From NCBI GenBank assembly GCA_964346555.1, contig CAYFVJ010000001.1, positions 4,779 to 68,778 on the forward strand: a stretch of DNA of 64,000 nucleotides, read 5' to 3'. The position numbers were made by a program, and so were the translations under genes. The stretch comes from an uncultured Alteromonadaceae bacterium (GTDB lineage Bacteria; Pseudomonadota; Gammaproteobacteria; Pseudomonadales; Halieaceae). Below are positions 1,592 to 27,035 of this stretch, piece after piece. The notes beneath the pieces were generated by a model that was given only the letters and a program-made list of their open reading frames with translations, had not been told where the DNA came from and ran no database searches. The first letter of the stretch is position 1; the number at the start of each line of letters is the position of its first letter.

Positions 1592-2134
1592 ATGACATAC
1601 CGCGTCCAGAAATATCCTGCGGGCTGGCGTTTACTGCACTGGCTGATAGCGCTGATGGTTTTTACGCTGATCCCCGTCGGACTGTGGATGGCGTCGCGCG
1701 CCGAGGCCGATATCTGGGGAGAGCTGACCAACACACTATACAGCTGGCACAAGCTGATCGGTTTCAGCGTTCTCTCACTGATGATTCTTCGGATCATTGT
1801 GAGAGTCCGCTTCAAGACCCCGAACTACCCGGATACGATGCCACGCAGTCTGCGATTGGCGGCAGGACTGGTGCACCGGCTGATGTACGCGCTGCTTTTG
1901 GTGACACCCCTGTTTGGTTGGGCGGGCGTCACAGCGTTTCCCGCCCTGGTTACGGTGGGTGGATACGAGCTGCCGGCAATGCCCTTCGTTCCGGAGGATG
2001 GGGACCTGGCGGAGCGCCTGTTCGACCTGCACGGTGTTTTTGCCATTACCCTGGCAGTGCTGATCGCCGTTCATGCTGCGGCAGCGGTCCGCCACGTGAT
2101 CCGCGGGGATGGGATTTTCAGGCGGATGCTATAG
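1592..2134 (+). CDS. cytochrome b561 family protein (CybB/YodB-like)
   Basis: ORF 1490-2134. The best start is ATG 1592, preceded by AGGAGGG at 1581-1587. It is a 4-TM protein with His in the first (LLHWLIALMV) and last (HAAAAVRHV) helices. Confidence 0.8.
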   Translation: MTYRVQKYPAGWRLLHWLIALMVFTLIPVGLWMASRAEADIWGELTNTLYSWHKLIGFSVLSLMILRIIVRVRFKTPNYPDTMPRSLRLAAGLVHRLMYALLLVTPLFGWAGVTAFPALVTVGGYELPAMPFVPEDGDLAERLFDLHGVFAITLAVLIAVHAAAAVRHVIRGDGIFRRML

Positions 2135-4040: not shown

Positions 4041-5614
4041 TCAGTCCACCGGTAAAGCCAGGTCTCCCCCCACTGGCGGCCGTTTATCTCCAGCGTCACA
4101 CGCAATTCCGACAGCTCCGCCTGTCCAGGTGCAAATCTGACATAGGCCCGATAGTGACCGGTGGCGTCTACCAGCGTGCCGCTCGCATGCACGATGTCAC
4201 CGGCGCTGGCGGTCGCTCTGACACGTAGCGCGGCATCGCCGGCTGCCGCAGGCTGGGTCTGCCTGCCATCGCTGTAATCGATGACAAACAGCCGTTCCTT
4301 TTCCCCCGGACCGGCGCCTGACGCCGTTTTGATCACGCGCCCGGGGGCTCGCGTAAAAGTGGCGTCGGCGCCCCAGTGCATACGGTAGCGGAAACGGTAT
4401 TCCCTGCCTGACCTCAGCCCGGTGTCCGGCCGCCAGTAGGCGACGATGTTGTCCTGGTATTCACTGGCGGTCGGTATCTCCAGCAATTCGATGCGGCCCT
4501 TTCCCCAGTCACTCAGCGGCTCTATCCACAGAGAAGGTCGTTTATCGTAACGGGCCTCGTTGTCGTTGAACTGGTCGAAGTCCTGTACGCGCTGCATGAG
4601 TCCGAATCCGCTGGGCACGGAAGAGACGGCGCCGAAGCTCGCTACCTGTACCCCTGAGGGGTTGGCGAGGGGCCGCCAGATCCGCTCGCCGTCGGCCCGA
4701 TGTATCTGTAGTCCGTTAGAGTCGTGCACCGCATGGCGAAAGTCATCGAAGCCCGGGCGATTGCTGCTGTCGAAAAGAAACATGGACGTCAGAGGGGCGA
4801 TACCGACGCGCAGGCAGTCGCGACGTGGATACAGGCTGGCGTCAACGTCGATTCGGGTCTGTTTACCGGGCGCCGCGGTGAATCGATACGCGCCGGTCAC
4901 GGAGCGGCTCTCCAGCAGCGCATGGATAACGATGTCGTCTGAGCCAGCAGTGGGCCGTTCAATGTAAAAATGGCTGAAACGAGGAAACTCCTCGGCGCCG
5001 GGACCGACGGTGTTGACGGCCAGTCCACGTGCCGATAAACCATAAACAGAATCTCTGCCAACGGCACGCAGGTAGCTCGCACCCAGGAAGACCAGAAATT
5101 CATCGTGAACATCCGGCGTGTTGATAGGGTAGTGAACCCGAAATCCGGCAAAACCCGCGGCATCGAGCAAGGCGGTGTCGACAGGACTGTCTCGGTAATC
5201 GAAAAGATCCACTGAAAAAGTCAGGCGTCGACTTTTCTCGCCCTCGATCAGGTATATGCCGACAGGCTTGCTGTGTATAAATCCCGGGTGGAACATCTGT
5301 AGGCGAAAAGGCTGGGCGTCCTCGCGCCAGATGGCAGAGTCGGCGGCAAAGTTGATGCGCCGGTACTCGTCGTAGCTCAGGGAGCGCAGGCCGCTGTCTG
5401 CGATTATCGGAGCTGGCCTGTGCGGGCGCTTGGACAGATCCAGGGCATGCGCCCGGAGTTGCCGATAGGTCACGGGCCCGCTGTCTGCATGGGATGCCGG
5501 CTGTGCTATGAGCTTTGGCGCGGTCAGCAGCGCAATCGACAGACATAATGTGAAGAAACATACTGGCAAGAAGAGTCTGGCAGACGGCACACGGGTTATC
5601 ATCACATGATGCAT
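4037..5614 (-). CDS. opgG: periplasmic glucans biosynthesis protein G
   Basis: 525-aa ORF with an N-terminal signal-like segment (FLPVCFFTLCLSIALLTAPKLIAQ). Its length and sequence are typical of MdoG/OpgG, and it lies directly upstream of opgH. Confidence 0.9.
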   Translation of the reverse strand: MHHVMITRVPSARLFLPVCFFTLCLSIALLTAPKLIAQPASHADSGPVTYRQLRAHALDLSKRPHRPAPIIADSGLRSLSYDEYRRINFAADSAIWREDAQPFRLQMFHPGFIHSKPVGIYLIEGEKSRRLTFSVDLFDYRDSPVDTALLDAAGFAGFRVHYPINTPDVHDEFLVFLGASYLRAVGRDSVYGLSARGLAVNTVGPGAEEFPRFSHFYIERPTAGSDDIVIHALLESRSVTGAYRFTAAPGKQTRIDVDASLYPRRDCLRVGIAPLTSMFLFDSSNRPGFDDFRHAVHDSNGLQIHRADGERIWRPLANPSGVQVASFGAVSSVPSGFGLMQRVQDFDQFNDNEARYDKRPSLWIEPLSDWGKGRIELLEIPTASEYQDNIVAYWRPDTGLRSGREYRFRYRMHWGADATFTRAPGRVIKTASGAGPGEKERLFVIDYSDGRQTQPAAAGDAALRVRATASAGDIVHASGTLVDATGHYRAYVRFAPGQAELSELRVTLEINGRQWGETWLYRWTE

Positions 5615-5769
5615 TTATGCGGAGGCTTTTACAGTGGCGTAGATGCGTATGGGTCACATGCCAAGCCGGATCAGCAACGATACGCTTCGCTGGTCCCATG
5701 TTGCATGCGGTTCGTACAATCACACGATACATTATTGTGGACAGATGACTATGGTAACCGATTACTTCA

Positions 5770-6609
5770 GTGACGTGGTGCGTCATATTCCCACCCGTTT
5801 TGCCTGACGTGCCACATGCATTACCGCGCAGCGGGGTCGCGACTCGACTGCAGCGTGAAGTGTTGTGGATCGCCATGCTGGGTGTCGGTTTCCTCGCGGC
5901 GGTGGCAAGCGGGTTGTCAGCGCCAGAAGGAACGACAATTGCCCTGATCTGGTTCTTTCTCGGCTTGTTATGCTGGTGCGTGGTGCTCTGGCAATGCTAC
6001 CGCCGCCTGCATTTGAACTGCAGTGTGCTTGAAGGCAAGCACTACCCTGCATTGGGTATCGGCAATCGCATTACGCTGCTGCGCGGTCTGCTGATCGCGG
6101 CGACGGCAGGCTTTCTGGTGACTGTCCCGGGCGCGAGCAATCCCTGGATTTTCTATATACCGGCTGCGTTCTACACAGCGGCAGTTGTGGGTGACTGGCT
6201 TGACGGCTATTTCGCGCGCTGGCAGCGACAGACGTCCCGCCTCGGTGCGGAACTCGATACGGTGCTGGATGCTTTAGGCCTGTTGGTCGCGCCGCTGCTC
6301 GCGGTGATGCTCGGGAAACTCCATGTCAGCTACCTGTTGGTAAGCGTGGCTTATTATCTCTTCGAGTGGGGAAAAGCGTGGCGCCGGCGGTATCGTCGGC
6401 CAGTCTATGCGCTGCCGGCGAGTCGACTGCGGCGATATCTGGCGGGGATGCAGATGGTTTTGGTAGCCCTCGCGCTGTGGCCGCCTATTGCGGGCAGCCT
6501 GACGCGTATCCTGGGGATTATCCTGATGCTGCCGCTATTGTTCGGTTTTTGTCGGGATTGGTTGGCCGTCAGCGGCCGTCGCCGTGTGACTCAGGAAGGC
6601 GGAGCATGA
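5770..6609 (+). CDS. CDP-alcohol phosphatidyltransferase family protein, alcohol acceptor unknown
   Basis: It carries the exact family signature DWLDGYFAR-x8-GAELDTVLD (DG-x2-AR-x8-G-x3-D-x3-D) in a polytopic protein. The start is uncertain (GTG 5770 or ATG 5875). Confidence 0.8.
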   Translation: MTWCVIFPPVLPDVPHALPRSGVATRLQREVLWIAMLGVGFLAAVASGLSAPEGTTIALIWFFLGLLCWCVVLWQCYRRLHLNCSVLEGKHYPALGIGNRITLLRGLLIAATAGFLVTVPGASNPWIFYIPAAFYTAAVVGDWLDGYFARWQRQTSRLGAELDTVLDALGLLVAPLLAVMLGKLHVSYLLVSVAYYLFEWGKAWRRRYRRPVYALPASRLRRYLAGMQMVLVALALWPPIAGSLTRILGIILMLPLLFGFCRDWLAVSGRRRVTQEGGA

Positions 6610-7679
6610 GCCCGACAGGGGGGCTGACTCGCAGGAAAGTCCTGACGCTGTGGCTCTGGTTGCTGGCTCTGGCGCTGTTCGCCTGGACTCTCGGGCAATT
6701 GCCGCTGAGTGATATCGGCGCACAGCTGCGCCTGCTGACAGGGTGGGACTGGTTGCTCTGGTCTGCGGTCAATATCAGCGTTCTATACTTCGCAGTCAGG
6801 CGCTGGCAGCTGCTGGGGCAGGCCCTGCAGGCGCGGCTGTCGCTGCGCGCACTGTTCCGTCTGCGCCAGGCGGGCGCTGCGGTGAGTTTTCTGACCCCCG
6901 GGCCGCATTTCGGCGGTGAACCGCTGCAGCTTTACTGGCTGTATCGTTATCACGGGACGCCCCTGCACCGGGCGGTGGCTATGCTGGGTGTTGACCGCTT
7001 CTTTGAAACGGGCATCAACCTTGTGGTGCTTCTGGCGGGTGTGATCGTACTGAGTGCCACCGCTGTGGTGCCGTTGCAGGAATGGCTTTCGATAACCGCG
7101 ATCCTGAGCGGCGTTCTTTGCGCGCTGCTGGTGGCAGTCGCGCTCATGCTCCGCTACCCGGACTGGCTCGCAAACTGCCTGAGCCTGCCACTGCGGCGTC
7201 TGTATGCCGGTCTGGCGGCATATGACCGTCAGGCAGGAAGGGACGGCGCATGGCAGCGGGACAGCGCGCATCTCAGTCGCGGCTGGCAGTCGCTGGTAAA
7301 TCTATTGAGAGGCGCGCTGATACAGCATCGGCCGACGCTCTGGCTGGCTCTGCTGCTGTCAATAGCGGGATGGGGGGCGTTGCTGGTCGAGCTGGCACTG
7401 CTGCTGGATTTCCTGGGCCTGACGCCGTCACCCAGGGCTATCGCGCTGATCATGGTGGGCATGAGACTGGCGATGCTACTGCCTGTGCCCGGCGGCATCG
7501 GGACGATCGAGGCGTCATTGCTCTGGTCTTTTCAGTACCTCGGCCTCAGCGTCGACGCTGCCGTCGGTCTGATCGCCCTGGTACGCCTGCGGGATGCGCT
7601 TGTGCTGATCATCGGCATGACTTGCCTGTATAGCTACCACCGACCCGGACGCCAACGCGAGACCGCGTTAGCTGAATGA
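6606..7679 (+). CDS. flippase-like / LPG_synthase_TM (UPF0104) family membrane protein
   Basis: ATG 6606 overlaps the upstream stop (ATGA). It is a 357-aa polytopic protein with a PVPGGIGTIEASLLW motif typical of UPF0104. The 6366 ORF start lies inside the upstream gene. Confidence 0.7.
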   Translation: MSPTGGLTRRKVLTLWLWLLALALFAWTLGQLPLSDIGAQLRLLTGWDWLLWSAVNISVLYFAVRRWQLLGQALQARLSLRALFRLRQAGAAVSFLTPGPHFGGEPLQLYWLYRYHGTPLHRAVAMLGVDRFFETGINLVVLLAGVIVLSATAVVPLQEWLSITAILSGVLCALLVAVALMLRYPDWLANCLSLPLRRLYAGLAAYDRQAGRDGAWQRDSAHLSRGWQSLVNLLRGALIQHRPTLWLALLLSIAGWGALLVELALLLDFLGLTPSPRAIALIMVGMRLAMLLPVPGGIGTIEASLLWSFQYLGLSVDAAVGLIALVRLRDALVLIIGMTCLYSYHRPGRQRETALAE

Positions 7680-8048
7680 CTGTTTGAATGCCGCCCAGCA
7701 GGTCGCGTTCTCCCACAGCTTGGTGGTCATGGCGCCAGTGCCGGGTGGCGTTATGCCGGCCAGCAATTTTTCGTTCAGGATGCGGCTGAAATGCTCGATG
7801 CTCGGGTTGAGGCCAGCGAATTCGGGTTTGTCGTTCAGCATGCTGTCGCGGAAATAGTCCACCGTGCTTTTCAGCGCCGCGTCGATTTCGACAATGTCCA
7901 CCAGGTACCCGTGTCGATCGAGCGTGTCACTCTCGATACTGACTTCCAGCGTATAGTGGTGGGCGTGAGGGCTGTTCTCGTCGCCCCAGTCACCGCCTAT
8001 GAGGTAGTGGTTGGCGATAAAATCCTGTGTAACGGCTACGGTATACAT
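7668..8048 (-). CDS. 6-pyruvoyl-tetrahydropterin synthase / QueD-fold (COG0720) protein, atypical active site
   Basis: 126 aa from ATG 8048 (MYTVAVTQDF...). It has PTPS-like segments ANHYL, SPHAHHYTLEV and DIVEIDAALKSTVDYFRDSMLND. It starts 7 nt after the stop of the upstream MDR gene. Confidence 0.75.
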   Translation of the reverse strand: MYTVAVTQDFIANHYLIGGDWGDENSPHAHHYTLEVSIESDTLDRHGYLVDIVEIDAALKSTVDYFRDSMLNDKPEFAGLNPSIEHFSRILNEKLLAGITPPGTGAMTTKLWENATCWAAFKQSFS

Positions 8049-8055
8049 ACGCGTC

Positions 8056-9093
8056 CTATGAGGTTGGATAGTGGAACAATGGCTGCACGATATCGGATTG
8101 CTGTTCGTGTAACCGACGGTACAGGTCGCCGGCATCCGCTAGCGGAACAGTGTGCGTGATGAGCCGCGACGGATCCAGGCGACGAATCATTTCCCAGGCT
8201 ACGTCAAAACGCCGCTGCTTATCCCAGCGTCCGCCCAGTGATGGCGCCAGGGTGCTGACCTGACTGGTGATCAACTGCAGCCGGTTGCGGTGCGCCGGAC
8301 CACCCAGATCAACAGAGACCGGCTTGTTGCCGTACCAGCTACCGATGACGATGCGACTGGTGTAGCCGGCGAGCGAGATGGCAAGGTTGAGTGCATCCGG
8401 GTGGCCGCTCACTTCATAGATAAGATCGGCGTCGATCTGGGCAGGCTGCCGTTGCTCGGGCAGTGCTGCCTCATCTGGCCCGCACACGGTTCCTGCGCCC
8501 ATCTTCAGTGCCAGGCGTTGACGCTGTTGCTGTGCCTCCACCGCACTCAGCGACGCCAGGGGGTACTGCGCGAGCACGCCCGATAGCAGCAGCCCCACCA
8601 CGCCCTGTCCCAGCACCACGACACGCTCGCCGAGCATGGGCTGGCCGTCCTGAACCAGGTTGACCGCGGTTTCCATGTTGGGCAGAAAAACGCCAGACTG
8701 CGCGGAGATATCCGTCGGCAGCGCAATAAGGTGCTGCGCCTGGGCAATAAAATGGCTGGCGTGGGGCTGGAATGAAAACACCTGCGTGCCGATCCAGGCC
8801 GGGTCTACGCCACTGCCGACCTTCTGCACCTCCCCGACACAGGCGTAACCGAAGGGCACAGGGTATTGCGGGGGGCGCTGCAAGGATTCCAGCGTGCTGT
8901 CCAGGGACATAGAGGGCGGGAGCTGCCCCCGGTAAAGCAGCAGCTCAGTGCCGGCGCTAACGGCGGAGAACAGTGTTTTTACTTCGACCTCGCCCGGTCC
9001 CGGTGCCGCCAGCGTGAACTCACGTACCTCTACCTCGAAAGGCGCGGTAAACCAGAGTTGTGATGCCGTCGTTGTGGCACTCGCGTTCGTCAT
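8056..9093 (-). CDS. medium-chain dehydrogenase/reductase (zinc-ADH superfamily, BchC-like, catalytic zinc ligands apparently absent)
   Basis: 345 aa with a GroES-like N-terminal part (GEVEVKTLFSAVSAGTELLLYRG, GYACVGEVQKVG) and a Rossmann motif VVVLGQGVVG. Its ATG overlaps the RibD_C gene stop (ATGA at 9090-9093). Confidence 0.75.
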   Translation of the reverse strand: MTNASATTTASQLWFTAPFEVEVREFTLAAPGPGEVEVKTLFSAVSAGTELLLYRGQLPPSMSLDSTLESLQRPPQYPVPFGYACVGEVQKVGSGVDPAWIGTQVFSFQPHASHFIAQAQHLIALPTDISAQSGVFLPNMETAVNLVQDGQPMLGERVVVLGQGVVGLLLSGVLAQYPLASLSAVEAQQQRQRLALKMGAGTVCGPDEAALPEQRQPAQIDADLIYEVSGHPDALNLAISLAGYTSRIVIGSWYGNKPVSVDLGGPAHRNRLQLITSQVSTLAPSLGGRWDKQRRFDVAWEMIRRLDPSRLITHTVPLADAGDLYRRLHEQQSDIVQPLFHYPTS

Positions 9094-9833
9094 GAAGTGA
9101 AGCCGCGCGGGTTTCTGTCACCGTAGCGAAGACTCCCCCAGATAATCAACTCATTGCCCACCTGTCGACTGTGCAGCGGCGCGATGCTCGGAAAATCGGC
9201 CGCGTCCGGGGTGCCGAGTTGTCCTATGGCGTTGTACCCCCCGACGAATAGCGGTGCCAAAGTCAGCACCGCGGCATCCGCCAATCGTTCCCGCAGGAAC
9301 GCGCTTATCACGGACGCGCCGCCCTCTATCATCAGGCTGCGAATGCCGAGCCGGTGCACGGTTTCCATGGCCTGGTGCAGGTCGATATGGCCGGCATCGT
9401 TGCCGGGGACCACGATCAGCTTGCAGCCACGGCGAGTGGCTTCGCCGACCTGCGTTGTCAGCACCCAGCAGCGCTGTTCATCGCTCTGGCAAAGTCGGCT
9501 TGCCGGGGGCATGCGCAACTGACTGTCCAGCACGATGGGCTGTGGGTCACTGCCGGGCCATTCGCGTACGGTGAGTCTCGGATCATCGGCGATAACCGTA
9601 CCAATGCCAACCAGAATGCCGTCGTGCAGGCTGCGCAGCTGATGCGTCATTCGCAGGCTGGAGTCGCTACTCAGTGCCAATGTCGTGCCGGGCGCAGTGG
9701 TAATGCTGCCGTCACAGCTCTGGGCATAACTCAGCGTGATGTGGGGGCGCGGGCGATGAATACTGGGAGGTGAAGAGTGAAAGCGGGTCTGCTCACTGAC
9801 CAGCCACTGTTCAATATCCTGATTTAGGGTCAT
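9090..9833 (-). CDS. stand-alone RibD C-terminal-domain reductase (dihydrofolate-reductase-like fold)
   Basis: 247 aa. It contains HITLSYAQSCDGSI, DGILVGIGTVIADDPRLTVR and SLMIEGGASVISAFL, as in the pyrimidine-reductase domain of RibD. There is no deaminase domain. Confidence 0.75.
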   Translation of the reverse strand: MTLNQDIEQWLVSEQTRFHSSPPSIHRPRPHITLSYAQSCDGSITTAPGTTLALSSDSSLRMTHQLRSLHDGILVGIGTVIADDPRLTVREWPGSDPQPIVLDSQLRMPPASRLCQSDEQRCWVLTTQVGEATRRGCKLIVVPGNDAGHIDLHQAMETVHRLGIRSLMIEGGASVISAFLRERLADAAVLTLAPLFVGGYNAIGQLGTPDAADFPSIAPLHSRQVGNELIIWGSLRYGDRNPRGFTS

Positions 9834-9884
9834 GCGCTGAGAGCTTTTTCAATAAGACACAGCTGAAGGTCGCTATATTGAGTG

Positions 9885-9890
9885 ATTATA
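9885..9890 (-). promoter_or_regulatory. possible -10 hexamer (TATAAT on minus strand) for the RibD_C/MDR/PTPS operon
   Basis: A perfect TATAAT lies 52 nt upstream of ATG 9833, in the AT-richer 208-bp divergent spacer. I found no convincing -35. Confidence 0.25.
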
Positions 9891-10041
9891 AAGGTATGGG
9901 CCTCACGGCTTGTTTCAGCTATCGACATACGTCACTCTGTGGCATTTCCGGTCTCATGATACTACGCCTGTAGCATCCCGTTAGTATGCATCTAAACACT
10001 ATTGAATTAGGACATGTTGCCGACAACGGATCAAGCGACCC

Positions 10042-11094
10042 GTGAGCCGCGACGTCGTGCATTTTGCGTTTCCCGGATCTCTGGATACGCTGACCGGCGG
10101 CACTATCTACGATCGTCAATTGATAGATAATCTGCGCTTACTCGGACTCGATGTCGCCACACTCGCCCTGTCGGGGCAATTTCCTTTCCCCGACGCCCGG
10201 GCCCTGCAAGAGACGCGTGAGGCGCTATCCGCCCTGCAGGACGATGCGGTCGTGATCATCGACGGTCTGGCTCTCGGTGCGTTTGACGAGCTGACAGCCG
10301 CACAAGCGCAGCGTCTGCGGATCATCGCGCTGTGCCATCATCCGCTGGAGCTGGAGTCGGGGCTCCAACCGCAGCAGCAAGAGCGTTTCCACGTATCTGA
10401 GCAGCGTGTACTGCAGGGCGCGCGCGCGGTCCTGGTGACCAGTGAGCATACCCGGCAGACCGTGATCGCCGCATTCGCCCTGTCCCCGGAGCGCGTGATT
10501 GTTGCACGACCCGGCACCGGCCGTATTCCATTTGCCGATTGCAATGGTCATCCGCCACGCCTATTGGCTCTGGGTTCATTGATCAGAAGGAAAGCGCACA
10601 ATGTATTGATCGATGCGCTGGCACCCTTGACACATCTGCCCTGGCAGGCGCGATTTGCAGGCAGCGCGGCGTTCGATCCGGCATGGAGCGACCAGCTGCA
10701 GCAGCAGGTCGATCGTCTGGGCCTGCAGTCGCGTATCTGCTTTGCAGGCACGGTGGACGATCCCGCGCTGGAATTTCGCGCTGCCGACCTGTTTGTTCTG
10801 CCATCGCGCTATGAGGGCTACGGTATGGTTTTCGCGGAGGCGCTGGCCGCGGGGCTGCCCGTCATCGCGGCGCGCGCTGGTGCGGTGCCCGACCTGGTAC
10901 CCGAATCTGCCGGCCTCCTGGTGCCACCTGATGATGCGCGGGCCTTGACAGTGGCCCTGCGCACGCTGCTGACGCAGGAGAATCTGCGCCGGCAATTGCA
11001 GGCCGGCGCCCGGCGTGCCGCTGCCGCGCTGCCGACCTGGAGCGATACCGCGGGACGTGTGGCCCACCTGATTGATGCTGTGCGATCAGCATGA
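10042..11094 (+). CDS. glycosyltransferase family 4 (GT-B fold)
   Basis: 350 aa with the EX7E motif PSRYEGYGMVFAEALAAGLPVIA. The start is GTG 10042 (alternative GTG 10057). Confidence 0.85.
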   Translation: MSRDVVHFAFPGSLDTLTGGTIYDRQLIDNLRLLGLDVATLALSGQFPFPDARALQETREALSALQDDAVVIIDGLALGAFDELTAAQAQRLRIIALCHHPLELESGLQPQQQERFHVSEQRVLQGARAVLVTSEHTRQTVIAAFALSPERVIVARPGTGRIPFADCNGHPPRLLALGSLIRRKAHNVLIDALAPLTHLPWQARFAGSAAFDPAWSDQLQQQVDRLGLQSRICFAGTVDDPALEFRAADLFVLPSRYEGYGMVFAEALAAGLPVIAARAGAVPDLVPESAGLLVPPDDARALTVALRTLLTQENLRRQLQAGARRAAAALPTWSDTAGRVAHLIDAVRSA

Positions 11095-11903
11095 GCGGAT
11101 TCTCTACCGACTGGCTTGACCTGCGGGAAGATGCCGACCGGCGCGCCCGTGACAGAGAGCTCATGGCGCGGGCGCGGCAGTGGCTGCACCCGGGTGGCCC
11201 CGCAACGCAGGCGCCGCTGGTGGTCGACCTGGGGGCTGGCACGGGCTCTACTCTGCGTGCATTTGACGATCCGATGCATCGGCCTGTGGCCTGGCGCCTT
11301 GTGGATCACGATTCCACGCTGCTCGCTGAGGCCCATCGGCGCCACGGCACTCAGCATCACCTGGAGACGGTTGTTGCGGATCTGGCGCAGATTTCTGCGC
11401 TGCCCCTGCGCGATGCCCGCCTGATCACCGCCTCGGCCCTGTTCGATCTGGTCTCTGCGGGATTTATCGACGCGCTCGCGCAAGTGTTGCGAAAGCAGTG
11501 TCGTCACAGCCCGGTCGGCCTCTATGCGGCACTGAACTACGATGGTTCGACCCGCTGGACACCCGCGCATCCGCTCGATGACGTCGTTCTGGAGCGGTTC
11601 AATCGAGATCAGCGTCGCGACAAGGGCTTTGGACCGGCCCTGGGGCCCGACGCCCGCGATGCAATAAAGCGAGCGTTCACCCAGGCTGGCTTTGAGGTCC
11701 GTTACGCCGCCAGTCCCTGGGTACTTGATGGCGCCGACGAGGCGCTGGTGGCGGCGTTGGCAGGCGGTATCGGTGATGCCGTGGCCGGCGGCTCGGGACT
11801 CGATGCCAGTGCGCTGGCGGACTGGCTTCGCTTTCGACTCGCCCAGGCGCCGTTCGGTACCTGCACGGTAGGACATGCGGACCTGCTGGCGTTGCCGCAC
11901 TGA
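11091..11903 (+). CDS. class I SAM-dependent methyltransferase
   Basis: 270 aa with SAM motif I, VVDLGAGTGS. Its ATG overlaps the GT4 stop (ATGA at 11091-11094). Confidence 0.7.
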   Translation: MSGFSTDWLDLREDADRRARDRELMARARQWLHPGGPATQAPLVVDLGAGTGSTLRAFDDPMHRPVAWRLVDHDSTLLAEAHRRHGTQHHLETVVADLAQISALPLRDARLITASALFDLVSAGFIDALAQVLRKQCRHSPVGLYAALNYDGSTRWTPAHPLDDVVLERFNRDQRRDKGFGPALGPDARDAIKRAFTQAGFEVRYAASPWVLDGADEALVAALAGGIGDAVAGGSGLDASALADWLRFRLAQAPFGTCTVGHADLLALPH

Positions 11904-11917
11904 TCGCCGGGCACCAA

Positions 11918-12664
11918 TCACACCAGGCGTCGGGCATAGACATCACCGCTGCCATTCAGCGTTGCCTCGAGTTCGCGACTTATTTCGCGCGGCGTGCGCC
12001 AGCGATCAAACTGCAGGCGATGTGTCTCACCGGGCGCCAGGTTGTATTCATACCGGCCAAGCGCTTCCAGCCGCTGGACGCACGCCAGCGCCATCGCGAC
12101 TGCTGCCGGAATGTATTCGAACGACAGCGCTGCCAGCGGTCTGGAAAGGCCCTGGAGAACCTGCAGCTCAAAGCCCTCTACATCGATCTTGCAGAAGCGC
12201 GGCTCGCCGTACGTCTCGATCAGGGCATCGAGGGTCGTCACCGGTACGGTCACCTGACGGTCCCAGTGCACAGACTCGAAAGACGGGTCCTGCCGCACGC
12301 GTGAGATCCACTCAGATGACATCGTGGTGACGGTAGGCGTCCGCGTGCTGATGAACAGGGTAGCCTCACCCGGCTCGGCGGCGACAGCCTTTGCCACCAA
12401 CGCAATGGCCGCATCCTTGCCATAGCGTTGTTGCAGAGTATGTCTCAGCAGCGGCTGGGGCTCCACCGCCACGACCCGTGCCCCCAGTGTCCGCCAGGCC
12501 TGCAGCCGGTTGCCCACGTGGGCGCCGATATCGAAACACAGATCATCGTGCCCGATAAACTGTGCATAACACCGCTGCATGCGGCGTTGGCGGCCGGGAA
12601 TGCCGTAATACATCAGTAGGGAGCGCCACAAACCGAGCCGTTCGCGCCAGCGGGTACCTGCCAT
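11918..12664 (-). CDS. FkbM-family methyltransferase
   Basis: The ORF extends to 12733, but ATG 12664 forms a TGATG junction with the upstream gene stop. It has the FkbM-like motif CFDIGAHVGNRLQAW. Confidence 0.75.
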   Translation of the reverse strand: MAGTRWRERLGLWRSLLMYYGIPGRQRRMQRCYAQFIGHDDLCFDIGAHVGNRLQAWRTLGARVVAVEPQPLLRHTLQQRYGKDAAIALVAKAVAAEPGEATLFISTRTPTVTTMSSEWISRVRQDPSFESVHWDRQVTVPVTTLDALIETYGEPRFCKIDVEGFELQVLQGLSRPLAALSFEYIPAAVAMALACVQRLEALGRYEYNLAPGETHRLQFDRWRTPREISRELEATLNGSGDVYARRLV

Positions 12665-14259
12665 CAGTTGCGTATCTCCAGCGACTCGGAAAAAGCCGAT
12701 ATAAAGCGGTTCCGCAGGCGATCCATACGCCATACCGGTGCGTTCTGATCCGGCAGCATGCCGGGCTGCCAGTGCCAGCTGTCGATGGCCTCTGTCATTG
12801 CCGGGTCCTTTGCAATCAGGTGCACCGGGACGTCCCAGTTAGCTTTGTCGCCCGAGATCATCGGCGCCGGTGGATGGTCGCCCAGCAACAGCAGCACCAG
12901 ATTCTCGTCACCGTATTCCTCAAGATAGGCAATCAGCGTTTCCAGCATGTATTCAATCGAGCGGCGGTAGTGGTCGCGTATTCTTTGCAGGTCGCTCCAC
13001 ACCTGTTCGGGCGTGGGCCCGGCCTGCGCCTGAGCGTTGAATATCCGGCCGTCGCGCACCTGGTCCCAGGGTACCAGTCGGGCTATCGGGGTCCAGGGTG
13101 CATGGGATGAAATCAGGGCGATCTCGGCCATCAGCGCCTGTCGATCTCCAGCCTCGCGTTCACGTGCCTGCAGAGCAGACCAGACGTACTGATCGGGCAT
13201 GGTCACCCAGTTGAACGGCAGACCCTCGTAGCCAAAATTGCCGGCGTTGTAGACCTGGTCATAGCCATAATAGGCGCCCTCCGGCCAGGCCATGCTGATA
13301 GCGGGCAGTGCGGCGACGCTGCGCCAGCCGGCTTCGCGAAACAGCTGGTTGAGCGCAACCCGGTCACTGACGAGCAGGCTGCGGTAGCGGGTTTCACTGT
13401 CAATCCATGCCCCGGACAGGAGCGTGGCATGTGCCAGCCAGCTCTGCCCACCGACGACTGGCGCGGTGAGAAAGGCGCTGCGCACATGAAAACCCGCCGA
13501 GTCGAGTGCCTCTTCAGCCCGCGACAGGCTGGCCGTTATCGACGCCGAAAAAGGTGGGTGTTCCAATAAAACCCGCCCGTAGGACTCCGCGAAAACGATA
13601 AAGACATCCTTGCCTTCAAGTCTGGAGAACAGTGAATCGGCGCGTTGCCCGGCCACGGGATCATCGCCGACCGTGTCGGCGAACGCGCGCATATCCTGTA
13701 GGCTGTCCACGGTGTCCTGCGCGTGCTGGATCAACTGCTGTGACGTGAAAGCATCGGCGCGTGGTGACCAACCTGTCGTTTTCAGTAGTCCCCAGGTGAG
13801 CAGCAGCATCAAAAGCGTCGCTGTGGACCGGCGTGGCGTCCGTTGCAGACGCCGCTGCAGGTGTCCCAGCGTCAGCGAGGCCAGCCAAACCAACAGCAGC
13901 GTCAGTAGCACCACAAACACGCCGGCCAGGATAGAGGTCAATGTGTTCGCCGCACCGCTCAGCAATCGACCGGCGTCCGCCAGCAGATGGCTGTCGAATA
14001 TCAGATTGAAGCGCCTGCCGAAAATCTCATGGGTAATCAGGTCGGCGATCCGCAGAATGACAGCAAATCCGAGTGACAATGCCAGAAGGATTTGAACCCC
14101 TTTGCCGAATCGACCGGGAATCAGAAGCAACAGGCCCATCACGACCAGCTCCAGGGGGAAAACACAAAACGCTTCGCCGGTGATCCAGTCCAGCCGGTTC
14201 GGCAGGACCAGAACAACAAAGACGACGACAACGGCGGTGGCAGTGATCAGGCCTTGCAC
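12664..14259 (-). CDS. membrane-anchored sulfatase-like (alkaline-phosphatase superfamily) hydrolase/transferase, LtaS/OpgB/EptA-like
   Basis: 531 aa with about 5 N-terminal TM helices followed by a soluble domain carrying DVFIVFAESYGR, ISSHAPW and LLLLGDHPP motifs. The GTG start overlaps the kef stop by 13 nt. Confidence 0.65.
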   Translation of the reverse strand: MQGLITATAVVVVFVVLVLPNRLDWITGEAFCVFPLELVVMGLLLLIPGRFGKGVQILLALSLGFAVILRIADLITHEIFGRRFNLIFDSHLLADAGRLLSGAANTLTSILAGVFVVLLTLLLVWLASLTLGHLQRRLQRTPRRSTATLLMLLLTWGLLKTTGWSPRADAFTSQQLIQHAQDTVDSLQDMRAFADTVGDDPVAGQRADSLFSRLEGKDVFIVFAESYGRVLLEHPPFSASITASLSRAEEALDSAGFHVRSAFLTAPVVGGQSWLAHATLLSGAWIDSETRYRSLLVSDRVALNQLFREAGWRSVAALPAISMAWPEGAYYGYDQVYNAGNFGYEGLPFNWVTMPDQYVWSALQAREREAGDRQALMAEIALISSHAPWTPIARLVPWDQVRDGRIFNAQAQAGPTPEQVWSDLQRIRDHYRRSIEYMLETLIAYLEEYGDENLVLLLLGDHPPAPMISGDKANWDVPVHLIAKDPAMTEAIDSWHWQPGMLPDQNAPVWRMDRLRNRFISAFSESLEIRN

Positions 14260-15815
14260 GAATTGCCCGTTGTGGCGACCTGCGTGAGTGTATGTTCCGC
14301 AAGCCCCACGCCCGCCTCGCTGAAGGTCAGGTAGGCGTGGTCCGCGCCGGCCTCCTGGATAGTATCCGCCTCATCCCGAAAGGCGGTATGGGCGACAATA
14401 AGACCGCTGTAGCCGCGCTTGCGCAGGTTCCGGGTGGCTAGAAGCTTGGCCTCGATGTCATTCATCGCCAGTATGACCCCTTTGACTTCCGGCATTGCCA
14501 GCCGCTCCCAGAATACCGGATCTTCGGCATCGGCATAGAATACACGGCGGTCTTTCTCGAGGTGGTCCTCCATCTTGGACGGATCCGAGTCCAGGCCGAC
14601 CAGGTGCGGCTCGACTGCCCGCAGATGCTCGTAGGCCGCAGTGCCGGTGCGTCCCATGCCCATGATCAGAATGTGCGCGTCCTGCAGCGATATGGGCTGT
14701 TCATCCGGGTGGCGCAGGTCGCGCTCGAAGGGGGACAGTCGATCTGCCAATGCCTCGTACATCGGGTGAGCAATTCGATTCAGTGGGGCGGAGATGACGA
14801 ATGACAGCGCCACCGTCAGCGCCAGCGGCACCAACCATTCGGGCAGCACCACGCTGGCGACAATGAGGCCGAATTCGCTGTAGTTGGTCAGACTCAGCCC
14901 GGCGAGAAACGCGCTGCGCGAGCGCAGGCGGAACAGGAGCAGAAGCAGGAAAAACAGCACGCCCTTGAGAGGCAGAACCAGCGACATAACCAGCGCCATG
15001 ATCAGGGCCTGACCATCGGGCAGACCGCCGATGCCGATCTGCAGGAAGAACCCTACCAGGAAAATTTCCTTGATGCCCCAGAGTGAATCCGACAGCTCCT
15101 TGGCGCGCGGATGGTTTGCCAGCAGGGCACCAAACAGCAGGGCGCCGAGCTCGGAGCTCAAACCGACGGACTCGAAGCCGTAGCCGCCGGCGGCCAGCGC
15201 CAGCAGCAGGCCAAACAACAGCATGAGTTCCTCGTGGCCGCTGGAGTCGAGCAGACGGTAGAGCACAGGTCGCAATACCGGCAGCAGGAATACCAGCAGC
15301 GCCCATGCGGACGGGGACGTGCCACCCGCGATACTCATGACCACCAGGGCGACCAGGTCCTGCACGATCAGAATACCGATGGCGACACGCCCATGGAAAG
15401 CGCGCAGCTCTTTCTTTGCCTCCAGAACCTTGGCCGCAAGTACCGTACTGGAGAACGACAGAGCGATGGCGAGCAAAAGGGAAGTGCGCAGGTCCAGGCC
15501 TGCCAGGAGCCAGAGAGCCGGGGCAAAAACGCCGACACTGACGGCAAAGTGAAGCAGCCCGCTGCCGATGACTTCGGGTCGCACCAGACTTTTCAGTTTC
15601 AGCTTCAATCCCACGGTGAAGAGCAGAAGGAGCACACCCAGATGCGCGATATGCTCAAGGATGACGCCATTTTCAAGCGGCAGGCCGAGTAGGTCGCTCG
15701 CTCCGCTCAGGGCAAATCCCGCGGCCAGGTAACCCACCAGGGGCGGCAGGCCAATGGCGCGCACCAGCATTCCCAGCGTGAATGCGAAAGTGAGCCAGAC
15801 GGCTTCAATGATCAT
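14247..15815 (-). CDS. Kef-type cation:proton antiporter (CPA2) with C-terminal TrkA-N/RCK domain
   Basis: The polytopic N-terminal part is followed by ILIMGMGRTGTAAYEHL (GxGxxG). ATG 15815 is preceded by GGGGAG. The ORF extends to GTG 15845. Confidence 0.85.
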   Translation of the reverse strand: MIIEAVWLTFAFTLGMLVRAIGLPPLVGYLAAGFALSGASDLLGLPLENGVILEHIAHLGVLLLLFTVGLKLKLKSLVRPEVIGSGLLHFAVSVGVFAPALWLLAGLDLRTSLLLAIALSFSSTVLAAKVLEAKKELRAFHGRVAIGILIVQDLVALVVMSIAGGTSPSAWALLVFLLPVLRPVLYRLLDSSGHEELMLLFGLLLALAAGGYGFESVGLSSELGALLFGALLANHPRAKELSDSLWGIKEIFLVGFFLQIGIGGLPDGQALIMALVMSLVLPLKGVLFFLLLLLFRLRSRSAFLAGLSLTNYSEFGLIVASVVLPEWLVPLALTVALSFVISAPLNRIAHPMYEALADRLSPFERDLRHPDEQPISLQDAHILIMGMGRTGTAAYEHLRAVEPHLVGLDSDPSKMEDHLEKDRRVFYADAEDPVFWERLAMPEVKGVILAMNDIEAKLLATRNLRKRGYSGLIVAHTAFRDEADTIQEAGADHAYLTFSEAGVGLAEHTLTQVATTGNSCKA

Positions 15816-25920: not shown

Positions 25921-25933
25921 GTATGAGCCCGGC

Positions 25934-26113
25934 TCAGCCCTTCGGACCGAAAAGGAACCACGCCAGCAGGCCGAACAGGGGCAGGACCAGGATAACCAGT
26001 GTCCAAATGACCTTGGCACCGGTTCCCGCAGAACTCTGTACCGTCTTGATAATCGCGTAGATAGCCAGGGCCAGCCAGATCAGTCCCAGCAGCCCACCTG
26101 TTTCAATGCCCAT
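25934..26113 (-). CDS. small 2-TM membrane protein, PLDc_N (phospholipase-D-like N-terminal) type
   Basis: This ORF is not in the supplied track (59 aa). My own translation is MGIETGGLLGLIWLALAIYAIIKTVQSSAGTGAKVIWTLVILVLPLFGLLAWFLFGPKG. The KxIWxLVILxxPxxGxLxWxLFG pattern is typical of this family. Confidence 0.6.
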   Translation of the reverse strand: MGIETGGLLGLIWLALAIYAIIKTVQSSAGTGAKVIWTLVILVLPLFGLLAWFLFGPKG

Positions 26114-27029: not shown

Positions 27030-27035
27030 ACGCCG

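Follow-up and report, generated by a model that had tools for sequence, protein, structure and literature searches.

A conserved gene cluster for an uncharacterised pathway predicted to start from GTP, probably yielding an envelope-linked pterin- or pyrimidine-type glycoside

Five genes in the 64,000-nucleotide stretch of DNA analysed here (the window), encoding a stand-alone RibD_C reductase, a zinc-less medium-chain dehydrogenase (MDR), a PTPS-fold protein, a GT4 glycosyltransferase and a class I methyltransferase, form the core, conserved across both prokaryotic domains, of an uncharacterised pathway that occurs in hundreds of species of bacteria and archaea. A sixth core gene, for GTP cyclohydrolase II (GCH II), is missing from this window. 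In this bacterium the product is probably an envelope-linked glycoside of pterin or pyrimidine type. Searches of databases and literature did not link orthologues of the cluster to any characterised pathway, curated NCBIfam equivalog or paper.

The genes for RibD_C (247 aa, 9090–9833), the MDR (345 aa, 8056–9093) and the PTPS-fold protein (126 aa, 7668–8048) lie on the minus strand and diverge, across a 208-bp spacer (9834–10041), from those for the GT4 enzyme (350 aa, 10042–11094) and the methyltransferase (270 aa, 11091–11903) on the plus strand. The coordinates and junctions given in the initial annotation were correct base for base: RibD_C and MDR share an ATGA overlap (9093–9090, minus strand), the MDR stop codon TAG (8058–8056, minus strand) is separated by a 7-base gap (8055–8049) from the PTPS-fold ATG at 8048, and GT4 and methyltransferase share a second ATGA (11091–11094, plus strand). 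The longest PTPS-fold open reading frame extends to 8135; all orthologues begin with MYTVAV, which places the start at 8048. GC content falls around the spacer (0.548 in 9501–10000 versus 0.60–0.68 in the surrounding sequence). The spacer contains no sigma-70-like site above chance level and gave zero matches in an Rfam search. Pfam and TIGRFAM profile searches uphold the assigned families, with the MDR and methyltransferase domains recognisable below the Pfam cutoffs, and the non-housekeeping context is borne out by the absence of que, rib and fol genes from the window.

The five genes had been read as one unit, and co-occurrence outside the source genome, on which that reading depended, was looked for and found. 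We fetched 80 loci with PTPS-fold orthologues, each from a different GTDB species, and the same families adjoin the orthologue in nearly all of them. Linkage was counted in the 45 related loci that had 7 kb or more of flanking sequence on each side: RibD_C and MDR each lie beside the PTPS-fold gene in all 45, GT4 does so in no fewer than 43 and the methyltransferase in no fewer than 39, a grouping far beyond chance. The five genes travel together in Gammaproteobacteria, Desulfuromonadales/Geobacteraceae and Anaerolineales; archaeal loci (Methanocella, Methanotrichaceae, Bathyarchaeia and one Halobacteriota metagenome-assembled genome (MAG)) are without RibD_C. Independent rearrangements have altered the gene order: in the window GT4 and methyltransferase are divergent from the other core genes, in loci L070, L075, L077, L080 and L083 they are co-linear, and in MAG locus L094 all nine genes form one co-directional operon. 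Comparative evidence thus shows one gene unit. The proposed linkage stands, but the unit was drawn too small: in the window it also takes in genes for a CDP-alcohol phosphatidyltransferase, an LPG_synthase_TM protein and a 531-aa LtaS-like protein.

The entry to the pathway is indicated by a gene lying directly upstream of RibD_C in 32 of the 45 full-flank loci, the other 13 having no GCH II in the cluster. Where present, this gene encodes a bona fide GCH II (PF00925 at 8e-68; TIGR00505 at 242 bits, cutoff 206). In Anaerolineales GCH II forms a single fusion protein with RibD_C (443 aa), and in the Halobacteriota MAG and Methanocella with the MDR (570–593 aa). Because GCH II heads most orthologous operons and is joined to RibD_C or the MDR in some lineages, the earlier suggestion of a GTP-derived heterocycle is strengthened, and an origin from GTP, via the riboflavin-type branch, is well supported. 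Comparison across loci shows the predicted pathway to begin with GCH II, by a riboflavin-type route, rather than with GTP cyclohydrolase I (GCH I).

The window itself had been noted to contain no GTP cyclohydrolase, and indeed a tblastn search with GCH II gave nothing significant, and Pfam scans of 40 further open reading frames in the window found neither PF00925 nor PF01227. A 32-codon open reading frame in the spacer (9830–9928, minus strand) is probably a relic of the lost GCH II gene. Its first ~24 residues resemble the GCH II N terminus, a match that is statistically weak taken alone (tblastn E of 0.04–0.3 against the whole window); its stop codon overlaps the RibD_C ATG (ATGA), and its position and strand are exactly those of GCH II in the 32 loci. 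A similar decayed frame occurs at the Chromatocurvus MAG locus L013. This lineage has lost the first enzyme dedicated to the pathway.

RibD_C (PF01872 at 2e-42; TIGR00227 at 151.1 bits, cutoff 150.15) is of the type that reduces 2,5-diamino-6-ribosylamino-4(3H)-pyrimidinone 5′-phosphate (DARPP), a 2-amino substrate, and its closest relatives in the PDB are the archaeal and fungal DARPP reductases 6P8C, 2AZN and 4HA7. Catalytic residues G76, T79, D83, E170, G171 and G172 do not vary, and position 35, which determines specificity, holds S, C, A or T but in no sequence Lys. Lys at this position selects the deaminated substrate, and T35K switches the preference of yeast Rib7 (PMC3631187). Comparative evidence shows that the enzyme bears the signature of a reductase acting on the 2-amino substrate in its non-deaminated form. 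With no deaminase in the cluster, position 35 never Lys, DARPP reductases as relatives and the ring-anchoring Glu of the PTPS-fold protein kept, the 2-amino group is predicted to be retained. Archaea reduce DARPP first and deaminate it afterwards (PMC3631187), which by phyletic logic would explain why bacterial clusters carry RibD_C and none of the archaeal clusters examined does.

The MDR and PTPS-fold active sites had been called non-canonical; the departures are real and conserved family-wide, as comparative evidence shows. The MDR, of polyol/threonine-dehydrogenase type, has BchC, GatD and Tdh as its best relatives and scores against polyol-phosphate, iditol, idonate and threonine dehydrogenases. 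In place of zinc ligands it has S46 and Y83-A84 (at least 95% conserved) and P/A138. Position 186, after beta-2, is D or E in 100% of 83 sequences; an acidic residue there predicts NAD, and the enzyme looks NAD-dependent. H111, K257, H268, R269, R271, R289 and R295 are conserved basic residues, and identity to archaeal orthologues is 46–48%.

In the PTPS-fold protein (PF01242 at 1e-22), the zinc-binding His triad H14/H28/H30 is kept and is 91–98% conserved among 98 diverse relatives. Glu113, which anchors the 2-amino-4-oxo ring, is kept too. By contrast, Glu24 (92% conserved among the same relatives) stands in place of the QueD catalytic Cys27, and the Asp-His pair of QueD is not conserved among them. 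The signature motifs of QueD, PTPS-II, PTPS-III and PTPS-IV are all absent, and the protein scores 45.7 bits against the QueD profile (cutoff 89.25). An AF2 model (pLDDT 94.4) and its Foldseek matches, led by SCO6650 (TM-score 0.83) and followed by QueD and PTPS, confirm the predicted T-fold. SCO6650 offers no clue to function, as its deposited entry is that of an uncharacterized protein; the matches also include Plasmodium vivax PTPS entries titled with Glu37 as the catalytic residue. Identity is 62–97% across the 80 loci and 50–60% to the archaeal, Anaerolineales and L094 orthologues.

The glycosyltransferase is a retaining GT-B enzyme (PF00534/PF13692 at 1e-29) with SPS-like proteins, MshA and PimA/B as PDB relatives; the pteridine glucosyltransferase BGluT is only a distant relative (E of 1e-7, donor domain only). 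An orthologue lies directly downstream of the PTPS-fold gene in archaeal, Anaerolineales, L094 and Methylomonas/Desulfuromonadales-type loci, at 25–32% identity. The SAM-dependent methyltransferase (SAM motif VVDLGAGTGS; Methyltransf_25 at 1.6e-5, below cutoff) forms one orthologous family with those of Desulfuromonadales, L094, Anaerolineales and Methanocella. A neighbouring FkbM-family methyltransferase gene (11918–12733, minus strand; PF05050 at 6e-15, TIGR01444) is found in only 9 loci of the Chromatocurvus/Saccharospirillum group and is a lineage-specific accessory.

Three membrane-lipid genes flank the core. The CDP-alcohol phosphatidyltransferase (5860–6609, plus strand; 249 aa in the gene call of the identical contig L001, the mechanical reading frame starting at 5770; PF01066 at 2.9e-17) carries the motif D-x2-D-G-x2-A-R-x8-G-x3-D-x3-D, in its translation DWLDGYFARWQRQTSRLGAELDTVLD, and is adjacent in at least 41 of the 45 loci and present in the L094 operon. 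The LPG_synthase_TM gene, for an MprF-like ‘flippase-like’ membrane protein (357 aa, 6606–7679, plus strand; PF03706 at 1.5e-30, TIGR00374 at 9e-21), overlaps it by 4 nt and the convergent PTPS-fold 3′ end by 12 nt, and occurs in at least 39 of the 45. The 531-aa membrane protein (12664–14259, minus strand) has predicted N-terminal membrane helices followed by an alkaline-phosphatase superfamily domain of the LtaS, GacH and EptA/MCR-1 type. Single-sequence Pfam and PDB searches gave no match for it; the family profile matches LtaP (E of 0.035), where the ES, SSHxP and GDH motifs line up, and its homologues include some with PF00884 or with the name ‘alkaline phosphatase family protein’. Its AF2 model (pLDDT 76.7, with predicted active-site loops 268–298 below 50) has LtaP (4e-8), LtaS, full-length MCR-1 (TM-score 0.48), GacH, PbgA and EptC as top Foldseek matches, at TM-scores of only 0.34–0.48. 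This gene is present in 32 of the 45 loci and absent from 13, and in 9 loci a YceI-like gene is inserted into the cluster. With these three proteins in the unit, a link of the product to the envelope or to lipid is probable. No lipid genes lie within 8–10 kb of the archaeal and Anaerolineales loci, so the lipid link is lineage-specific and could be looser than adjacency suggests.

We propose an orphan pathway with GCH II entry and a pterin-type product that is glycosylated, methylated and, in Proteobacteria, handed to a lipid; taken whole, this has in our judgement an even chance of being right. GTP would be opened to DARPP by GCH II, from the operon in most relatives and from housekeeping RibA in this bacterium. 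RibD_C would use NADPH to reduce DARPP that has not been deaminated, giving DARIPP, a ribityl compound which to our knowledge bacteria do not normally make. The MDR would then re-oxidise a ribityl hydroxyl, most likely C2′ beside the amine, so that reduction followed by oxidation would turn an aldose-type into a ketose-type amine, much as glucose becomes fructose in the sorbitol pathway. The aminoketone could close onto the 5-amino group to give a pterin resembling 7,8-dihydroneopterin phosphate, whose phosphorylated side chain may be remodelled or cleaved by the PTPS-fold enzyme, which has a zinc site, a Glu that anchors the ring and, in place of Cys, a Glu as base. GT4 would add an alpha-linked sugar and the methyltransferase a methyl group, the acceptors of both, like all of the product chemistry, being inferred. 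In Proteobacteria the CDP-alcohol phosphatidyltransferase would link the product to phosphatidate, the MprF-like flippase domain would bring it into the leaflet facing the periplasm, and an acceptor in the envelope would receive the phospho-head group through the LtaS/EptA-like enzyme.

GCH I needs no cofactors for what reducing and re-oxidising the side chain would achieve here, and the proposed closure to a pterin ring may therefore be wrong. The heterocycle might instead stay a ribityl- or deoxypentulosyl-aminopyrimidine, or close to a non-pterin ring, with the MDR oxidising C3′ or C4′ and the PTPS-fold enzyme eliminating the 5′-phosphate through chemistry of the PTPS or methylglyoxal-synthase type; this would leave a deoxy-diketo side chain, and the product would then be glycosylated and methylated. 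Such a route avoids the apparent redundancy with GCH I and keeps to the safest inference, a ribityl intermediate from a clearly riboflavin-type reductase. The hallmark PTPS reaction is phosphate elimination from a vicinal diol phosphate; it needs a carbonyl, which the MDR could supply, and the many conserved basic MDR residues could suit a phosphorylated substrate. Nevertheless, GatD, iditol 2-dehydrogenase and threonine 3-dehydrogenase oxidise the hydroxyl beside the chain end or amine, which favours C2′; the characterised PTPS-family substrates we know of are all bicyclic pterins, and we know of no natural product of this kind. We regard this alternative as unlikely, if a serious one. Somewhat less probable still is the narrower proposal of the initial annotation, a soluble pterin or pyrimidine glycoside, with the membrane genes an independent envelope module merely adjacent in Proteobacteria. 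All three are missing from archaeal and Anaerolineales clusters, several of which have MFS transporters beside them that would suit export of a soluble product, and the pterin glycosides known to us are soluble; yet the CDP-alcohol phosphatidyltransferase and LPG_synthase_TM genes have stayed adjacent in at least 39–41 of the 45 proteobacterial loci despite rearrangement, and in L094 both belong to the co-directional operon of the core.

We give very little credence to an aminopentanetetrol-type (ribitylamine) phospholipid head group, in which ribitylamine phosphate from DARIPP would be attached by the CDP-alcohol transferase and N-methylated. The compound is formally a 1-amino-1-deoxypentitol, RibD_C makes a ribitylamine linkage, the PTPS-fold family reaches Euryarchaeota, and the literature mentioning the compound yielded no description of its biosynthesis. 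N-methylated aminopentanetetrol lipids do exist, but the head group is described in Methanomicrobiales and not in Methanosarcinales (PMC6423904), and the archaeal clusters lie in Methanocella, Methanotrichaceae and Bathyarchaeia with no CDP-alcohol transferase nearby. Moreover, GT4 is universal in the cluster, yet these lipids are sugar-free, and no cluster enzyme is an obvious C–N hydrolase. Equally improbable are housekeeping paralogues of riboflavin, folate or queuosine synthesis (a second RibD reductase, QueD) lying by chance near envelope polysaccharide genes: public annotation does name the PTPS-fold protein ‘6-carboxytetrahydropterin synthase’, but the missing catalytic Cys and signature motifs, the score far under the QueD cutoff and the lack of que, rib and fol neighbours speak against it, and conserved linkage and gene fusions argue for a dedicated pathway. 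Our best guess for the product is a methylated pterin-type glycoside, which in diderm bacteria would be attached to a lipid.

Re-reading the window base by base recovered five open reading frames (ORFs) and all of their junctions as the initial annotation had given them. The minus strand carries genes for a PTPS-fold protein (7668–8048), an MDR dehydrogenase (8056–9093) and a RibD_C reductase (9090–9833); a GT4 glycosyltransferase (10042–11094) and a methyltransferase (11091–11903) follow on the plus strand. RibD_C and MDR share an ATGA (9093–9090, minus strand), the MDR stop codon (TAG, 8058–8056, minus strand) is separated by 7 bases from the PTPS-fold ATG at 8048, and a second ATGA (11091–11094) is common to GT4 and methyltransferase. 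The divergent spacer between the two groups is 208 bp long (9834–10041) and falls in a dip in GC content (0.548 at 9501–10000, compared with 0.60–0.68 in flanking sequence). Antisense ORFs of up to 367 aa run across the GT4 and methyltransferase genes (for example, 10818–11921 and 10576–11067, both minus strand); being without conserved counterparts, they look like high-GC artefacts. Rfam searches returned nothing for window positions 5000–15000 at E ≤ 1 and, apart from one tRNA, nothing for seven orthologous loci, so that no riboswitch or leader points to the end product, and a promoter and terminator scan of the locus found nothing over shuffled expectation.

Pfam and NCBIfam profiles agree with the families originally named for the five proteins. 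The PTPS-fold protein matches PF01242 (1e-22; 80.9 bits, cutoff 22.4), RibD_C matches PF01872 (2e-42) and, slightly over its cutoff of 150.15, TIGR00227 (151.1 bits), and GT4 matches PF00534 (103.9 bits) and PF13692 (104.1 bits), both over cutoff (1e-29). In the MDR protein, ADH_N and ADH_zinc_N are discernible under the Pfam cutoff. The methyltransferase reaches 25.9 bits against a cutoff of 27 for Methyltransf_25, with SAM motif I readable as VVDLGAGTGS, and has no match in a sequence search of the PDB; its orthologues in other phyla match Methyltransf_23/25/31 in precomputed tables. No que, rib or fol genes that would give these five a housekeeping setting were found in the window, as had been remarked. 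Names carried by near-identical proteins place the organism close to Chromatocurvus (Halieaceae, Gammaproteobacteria). Some 12 kb away lie moaC and moaE (26284–27500, plus strand), genes for molybdopterin, also a GTP-derived pterin, for which no linkage to the cluster was seen elsewhere; flavin reductase-like and Nudix genes (27497–28539) come after them. Amidoligase_2 (PF12224) and Peptidase_C26/GATase genes (24224–26019, minus strand), beside a beta-lactamase-family gene (22922–24220), are unrelated to the cluster.

A scan of GTDB with one genome per species matched at least 600 stretches and placed relatives of the PTPS-fold protein in at least 587 species, and from these we fetched 80 loci. 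Two independent analyses of the 80, by tblastn with the window proteins and by clustering of all ORFs, agree. The counts cover the 45 loci flanked by 7 kb or more on both sides, where lower bounds reflect crude ORF calling and tblastn recovers several misses. MDR and RibD_C are present in all 45, GT4 in at least 43 and the methyltransferase in at least 39. Four further families recur: a CDP-alcohol phosphatidyltransferase (5860–6609 in the window, plus strand) in at least 41, an LPG_synthase_TM membrane protein (6606–7679, plus strand) in at least 39, a 531-aa membrane protein (12664–14259, minus strand) in 32, and GTP cyclohydrolase II (GCH II) in 32. Gene content stays constant despite independent reshuffling. 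The PTPS–MDR–RibD_C triad and the GT4–methyltransferase pair are divergent in the group of the window; five loci (L070, L075, L077, L080 and L083) have the co-linear order GCH II–RibD_C–MDR–PTPS–GT4–methyltransferase, and in another (L094) nine genes form one co-directional operon, reading CDP-alcohol phosphatidyltransferase, LPG_synthase_TM, a small membrane protein, GCH II, RibD_C, MDR, PTPS, GT4 and methyltransferase. The families thus co-occur across the 45 full-flank loci, contrary to the possibility that they come together only in this genome. We regard it as nearly certain that the five genes are one functional unit, as first proposed; what changes is its extent, since GCH II also belongs to the core and membrane genes are added in Proteobacteria.

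Neither tblastn nor Pfam scans of ORFs found a GTP cyclohydrolase of any kind, or an intact GCH II gene, in the window, in keeping with the absence noted at the outset. A family without a copy in the window immediately precedes RibD_C, in the same orientation, in 45 of the 80 loci; this family is GCH II (PF00925, 8e-68), its archaeal version exceeding the trusted cutoffs for RibA. Gene fusions tie both RibD_C and MDR to the GCH II product: Anaerolineales (L089/L090) encode a GCH II–RibD_C fusion of 443 aa, and a Halobacteriota MAG and Methanocella (archaeal loci L085/L086/L087) encode a GCH II–MDR fusion of 570–593 aa. Bathyarchaeia have GCH II as a stand-alone gene of the operon. For riboflavin, archaea normally rely on GTP cyclohydrolase III, so the bacterial-type GCH II of the archaeal clusters suggests that the cassette was acquired horizontally there.

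The sole notable tblastn match to GCH II in the window falls within the spacer of 208 bp and shares the strand of RibD_C (E = 0.04). It corresponds to a 32-codon ORF (9928–9830, minus strand), MSIAETSREAHTFIITQYSDLQLC, of which the first ~24 residues resemble GCH II (orthologue, MSIPAVTRMTRTRIPTEYGDFHLC) and whose stop codon forms an ATGA with the start of RibD_C. A decayed counterpart occupies the same place in the Chromatocurvus MAG locus (L013). Weak as the E value is, the position is that expected of GCH II, and the ORF is probably what is left of a GCH II gene since deleted. With no GCH II in the cluster, as in 13 of the 45 full-flank loci, the housekeeping RibA must supply the activity.

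The RibD_C protein resembles most closely, among solved structures, the archaeal and fungal reductases of 2,5-diamino-6-ribosylamino-4(3H)-pyrimidinone 5′-phosphate (DARPP), the GCH II product (6P8C, 2AZN and Rib7 4HA7), with bacterial RibG behind. In yeast Rib7, the catalytic and NADPH-binding residues are G76-x-G78, T79, D83, E180 and G181-G182 (PMC3631187); all of 70 sequences of the RibD_C family have G76, T79, D83 and E170-G171-G172. Substrate selection depends on a residue that is Lys in bacterial enzymes acting on the deaminated substrate (AROPP) and Thr in the DARPP enzyme Rib7, where T35K switches the preference (PMC3631187). At this position (B. subtilis RibG K151, E. coli RibD K152) the window protein has Ser35, and the 70 sequences have Ser (52), Cys (11), Ala (4) or Thr (3) and never Lys. 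Judged by this residue, RibD_C is in the archaeal/fungal DARPP-type state. The cluster has no deaminase, so the 2-amino group should stay, and we consider it highly probable that the intermediate is GCH II-derived and retains this group.

Reducing without deaminating departs from the native riboflavin order of bacteria, which deaminate first and therefore have no DARIPP, the ribityl form of DARPP; the cluster thus needs a RibD_C reductase of its own. Archaea reduce first, which explains why RibD_C is missing from the archaeal clusters examined. The first two enzymes of cluster orthologues are the same as those of archaeal and fungal riboflavin entry (GCH II plus Rib7/ArfC), whereas deaminase, lumazine synthase and riboflavin synthase are lacking and the reductase is followed instead by MDR, the PTPS-fold protein, GT4 and the methyltransferase. 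The toxoflavin cluster, with ToxB (GCH II), ToxE (RibD-like, including a deaminase) and the methyltransferase ToxA, likewise diverts riboflavin intermediates into another heterocycle. It is alike in having dedicated GCH II, RibD-type and SAM methyltransferase genes, but is not known to contain a PTPS-fold protein, MDR, GT4 or lipid genes.

The MDR protein belongs to the polyol/threonine-dehydrogenase group, matching galactitol-1-phosphate 5-dehydrogenase GatD (4A2C) at E = 1.5e-13. Its GxGxxG Rossmann motif is invariant (G162, G164 and G167), and an acidic residue after beta-2, found in 83 of 83 sequences, predicts NAD rather than NADP as cofactor. The active site is non-canonical, as the initial annotation had it: S46, Y83, A84 and P/A138 occupy the positions of the catalytic zinc ligands, which are usually Cys, His, Glu and Glu/Cys, and the first three are at least 95% conserved. 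In the sorbitol (polyol) pathway, an NADPH-dependent aldose reductase acts first and sorbitol dehydrogenase, an NAD-dependent MDR, second. By analogy, the cluster may follow the same logic, with NADPH reduction of an aldose-type carbon by RibD_C and then a polyol-group MDR bearing an NAD signature; it differs in its presumed substrate, a ribosylaminopyrimidine phosphate, and in the loss of the catalytic zinc from the MDR.

The active site of the PTPS-fold protein is equally non-canonical, as claimed from the start. Its AlphaFold model (pLDDT 94.4) is a T-fold, closest in Foldseek to SCO6650 (PDB 3D7J, of PTPS-IV type and deposited as uncharacterized; TM 0.83), followed by QueD (0.71) and then PTPS. 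We assessed conservation by aligning 98 diverse relatives to E. coli QueD, in a sequence consistent with the PDB alignment. All three zinc His are kept (H14/H28/H30, for QueD H16/H31/H33; 91–98%), as is the ring-anchoring Glu at the QueD E110 position (89%). The position of QueD C27 holds Glu24 (92%), and in place of the Asp-His pair D70-H71 stand R67 and D68, conserved to only 40% and 54%.

The recognized signatures of the fold are CxxxHGH (QueD), CxxxxxHGH (PTPS-II), ExxHGH (PTPS-III) and FGPAQ (PTPS-IV) (PMC5041015, PMC5445326). The window sequence, GGDWGDENSPHAHHY, has none of these motifs and scores 45.7 bits against the QueD equivalog (cutoff 89.25). PTPS-III also has a Glu base, and Plasmodium entries of this type are listed with a catalytic Glu; there it stands at −3, here at the QueD Cys position (−4). 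Compared with PTPS-IV, the protein has WGDEN in place of FGPAQ and, unlike SCO6650, keeps the second zinc His. Signature and gene context together define a putative separate subfamily, set against QueD, PTPS-II, PTPS-III and PTPS-IV. Public names for the proteins of the cluster are generic or wrong (‘6-carboxytetrahydropterin synthase’, ‘hypothetical protein’).

GT4 is a generic retaining GT-B enzyme, whose nearest PDB relatives are SPS-like proteins, MshA and PimA/B. Behind these comes BGluT (5ZE7; E = 1.2e-7, 34.7 bits), aligned over residues 190–330 in the donor domain, a distant relationship that leaves room for a pterin acceptor. Pteridine glycosides such as biopterin glucoside, tepidopterin and cyanopterin are made by PTPS together with BGluT, PgtA or CtPGT, and cyanopterin is both glycosylated and O-methylated. 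The cluster is like these systems in pairing a PTPS-fold enzyme with a subsequent GT-B glycosyltransferase. It differs in entering through GCH II and a ribityl intermediate instead of GCH I, in having no sepiapterin reductase, in a PTPS-fold protein without the catalytic Cys and, in Proteobacteria, in the attached lipid module. We think it likely that the product is glycosylated and methylated. A second methyltransferase gene, of the FkbM family (11918–12733, minus strand), lies between the 531-aa gene and the core methyltransferase; a 70-nt overlap between its longest ORF and the end of the 531-aa gene makes a start codon further downstream probable, and its restriction to 9 loci (Chromatocurvus/Saccharospirillum group) makes it a lineage-specific tailoring extra.

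Beyond Proteobacteria, a search of representatives of 50%-identity clusters gave 234 with PTPS-fold relatives at E < 1e-10, sharing the signature GGDWGxENxxHxH, with named members in Euryarchaeota and Halobacteriota MAGs, Natronorubrum and Syntrophales. Seeding the search with an archaeal member added Bathyarchaeia, Methanotrichaceae, Methanocella and Anaerolineae. The core in these contexts consists of GCH II, MDR, PTPS and GT4, to which bacteria add RibD_C; some loci (for example, L092 and L093) are also without GCH II. The methyltransferase, one orthologous family throughout, is present in Anaerolineales and in loci L093 and L094 and lies a few genes off in Methanocella. Identity to the window proteins is 46–48% for archaeal MDRs and 50–60% for PTPS-fold orthologues outside Proteobacteria. 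Because the GCH II–MDR–PTPS–GT4 contexts and this high identity extend beyond Proteobacteria, the ancient core comprises GCH II in addition to the five genes of the initial annotation. No lipid genes were found within 8–10 kb in the archaeal or Anaerolineales loci examined.

The proteobacterial additions are membrane proteins. The CDP-alcohol phosphatidyltransferase (PF01066, 63.9 bits, cutoff 22) has the motif D-x2-D-G-x2-A-R-x8-G-x3-D-x3-D intact in translation and attains the cutoff of none of the head-group equivalogs (PgsA, PssA, PIP synthase and others). Its neighbour, the LPG_synthase_TM protein, is an MprF/HpnL-type ‘flippase-like’ membrane protein according to Pfam and NCBIfam. The 531-aa protein has no match in single-sequence Pfam and PDB searches; some homologues carry PF00884, and a profile of the family matches the lipoteichoic acid primase LtaP at E = 0.035 with the metal-site motifs aligned. 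Its AlphaFold model (pLDDT 76.7) retrieves LtaP (4e-8), LtaS, GacH, full-length MCR-1, PbgA and EptC in Foldseek with probability 1.00. As modelled, the protein would comprise N-terminal transmembrane helices and an extracytoplasmic sulfatase-fold domain. E225-S226, H386 and D461-H462 show no variation and line up with motifs of LtaS; the region of the candidate nucleophile, G270-G271-x-S273, is modelled at pLDDT < 50. LtaS, GacH and EptA/MCR-1 take a phospho-alcohol head group off a membrane phospholipid and pass it to an acceptor outside the cytoplasm; OpgB is a further transferase of this kind. An intact-motif CDP-alcohol phosphatidyltransferase beside a GT4 recalls PgsA/PIP synthase with PimA, the system of phosphatidylinositol mannosides (PIM), the transmembrane domain is of MprF type, and the predicted fold of the 531-aa protein is like that of LtaS and MCR-1; unlike in known head-group systems, the presumed alcohol substrate is GTP-derived and no member attains a curated head-group cutoff.

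The periplasmic glucan genes opgH (MdoH, 640 aa) and opgG (MdoG, 525 aa) adjoin the cluster in the window (2118–5614, minus strand). This adjacency was ruled out as a conserved part of the unit: it recurs in just 11–12 of the 80 loci, with orientation sometimes differing, and so is a lineage-specific hint rather than membership. As such, it could point to periplasmic glucans as the acceptor for the LtaS-like enzyme. Past opgH, at 9472–13405 of the locus on the window's own contig (L001), which takes in the start of the window and continues past it, lie genes for a cytochrome b561-like protein, an MFS transporter and two multi-haem cytochromes c (Multi-haem_cyto and Cytochrom_NNT), which are not conserved beside the cluster elsewhere. 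A gene for a YceI-like periplasmic protein (PF04264, 1e-33) occurs within the cluster in 9 loci (among them L053, L056, L058, L066, L080, L081 and L082), lying in L080 between the methyltransferase and LPG_synthase_TM genes.

The route that we propose would begin with conversion of GTP to DARPP by GCH II and its reduction to DARIPP by RibD_C with NADPH. MDR with NAD+ would then oxidize DARIPP, most likely at C2′, a position favoured because related dehydrogenases act beside the chain end or beside an amine. As in the sorbitol pathway, an aldose-type amine would become a ketose-type one, and ring closure of the resulting aminoketone on the 5-amino group could yield a dihydroneopterin-phosphate-like pterin. 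The main rival is that a ribityl or deoxypentulosyl pyrimidine is kept, or that another ring is closed; we hold C2′ oxidation with pterin ring closure only tentatively, judging it somewhat less than even. From such a pterin, the PTPS-fold enzyme would use zinc and its Glu base to remodel or cleave the side chain, GT4 would form an alpha-glycoside and the methyltransferase would add a methyl group. Proteobacteria would go on to join this product to phosphatidate, flip it and, in the periplasm, transfer its head group. We give the whole mechanism an even chance of being right, and lean moderately towards lipid or envelope coupling in this organism.

A different idea, suggested by the ribitylamine that RibD_C would form, is that the cluster makes an aminopentanetetrol lipid head group. 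We downgraded it, as the archaeal contexts are of the wrong taxa (PMC6423904); GT4 is moreover universal, and the archaeal contexts are without a CDP-alcohol transferase. None of the PTPS-fold, MDR, GT4, methyltransferase, CDP-alcohol phosphatidyltransferase and 531-aa proteins, in the window or in distant orthologues, scores over the cutoff of an NCBIfam equivalog. A search of full-text literature, which covered few subscription papers, returned nothing on the gene combination; within that literature, the orthologues have no assignment to a characterized pathway. The cluster combines elements of riboflavin entry, pteridine glycoside, toxoflavin-type and PIM/LtaS-type systems in an arrangement that we did not find described. 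The boldest form of the proposal, which we consider rather less likely than not, is a new class of envelope molecule: a methylated glycoside of a GTP-derived pterin or pyrimidine that the CDP-alcohol phosphatidyltransferase would join to phosphatidate, to be flipped to the periplasmic leaflet and handed over by the LtaS/MCR-1-like enzyme to an envelope acceptor, for example the periplasmic glucans of the adjoining genes. Its heterocycle would come from a pterin route that bypasses GTP cyclohydrolase I, with GCH II, a DARPP reductase and then an NAD-dependent MDR acting as in the sorbitol pathway. We see a real, though less than even, chance that the lipid-linked version is categorically new.

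As we read it, the cluster marks an unrecognized branch point off the riboflavin pathway at DARPP/DARIPP, and the gene fusions and phyletic logic make its first steps directly testable, with cultivable hosts at hand in Chromatocurvus halotolerans, Saccharospirillum impatiens, Cellvibrio fontiphilus, Methylomonas fluvii and Pseudohongiella spirulinae. Members of the PTPS-fold family at its centre, which at least 587 GTDB species encode, are routinely given the name QueD or PTPS in error. If the lipid module truly acts on the product, this would be, to our knowledge, the first GTP-derived head group on a phospholipid or in the envelope, and would give functions to three poorly understood families of membrane proteins.
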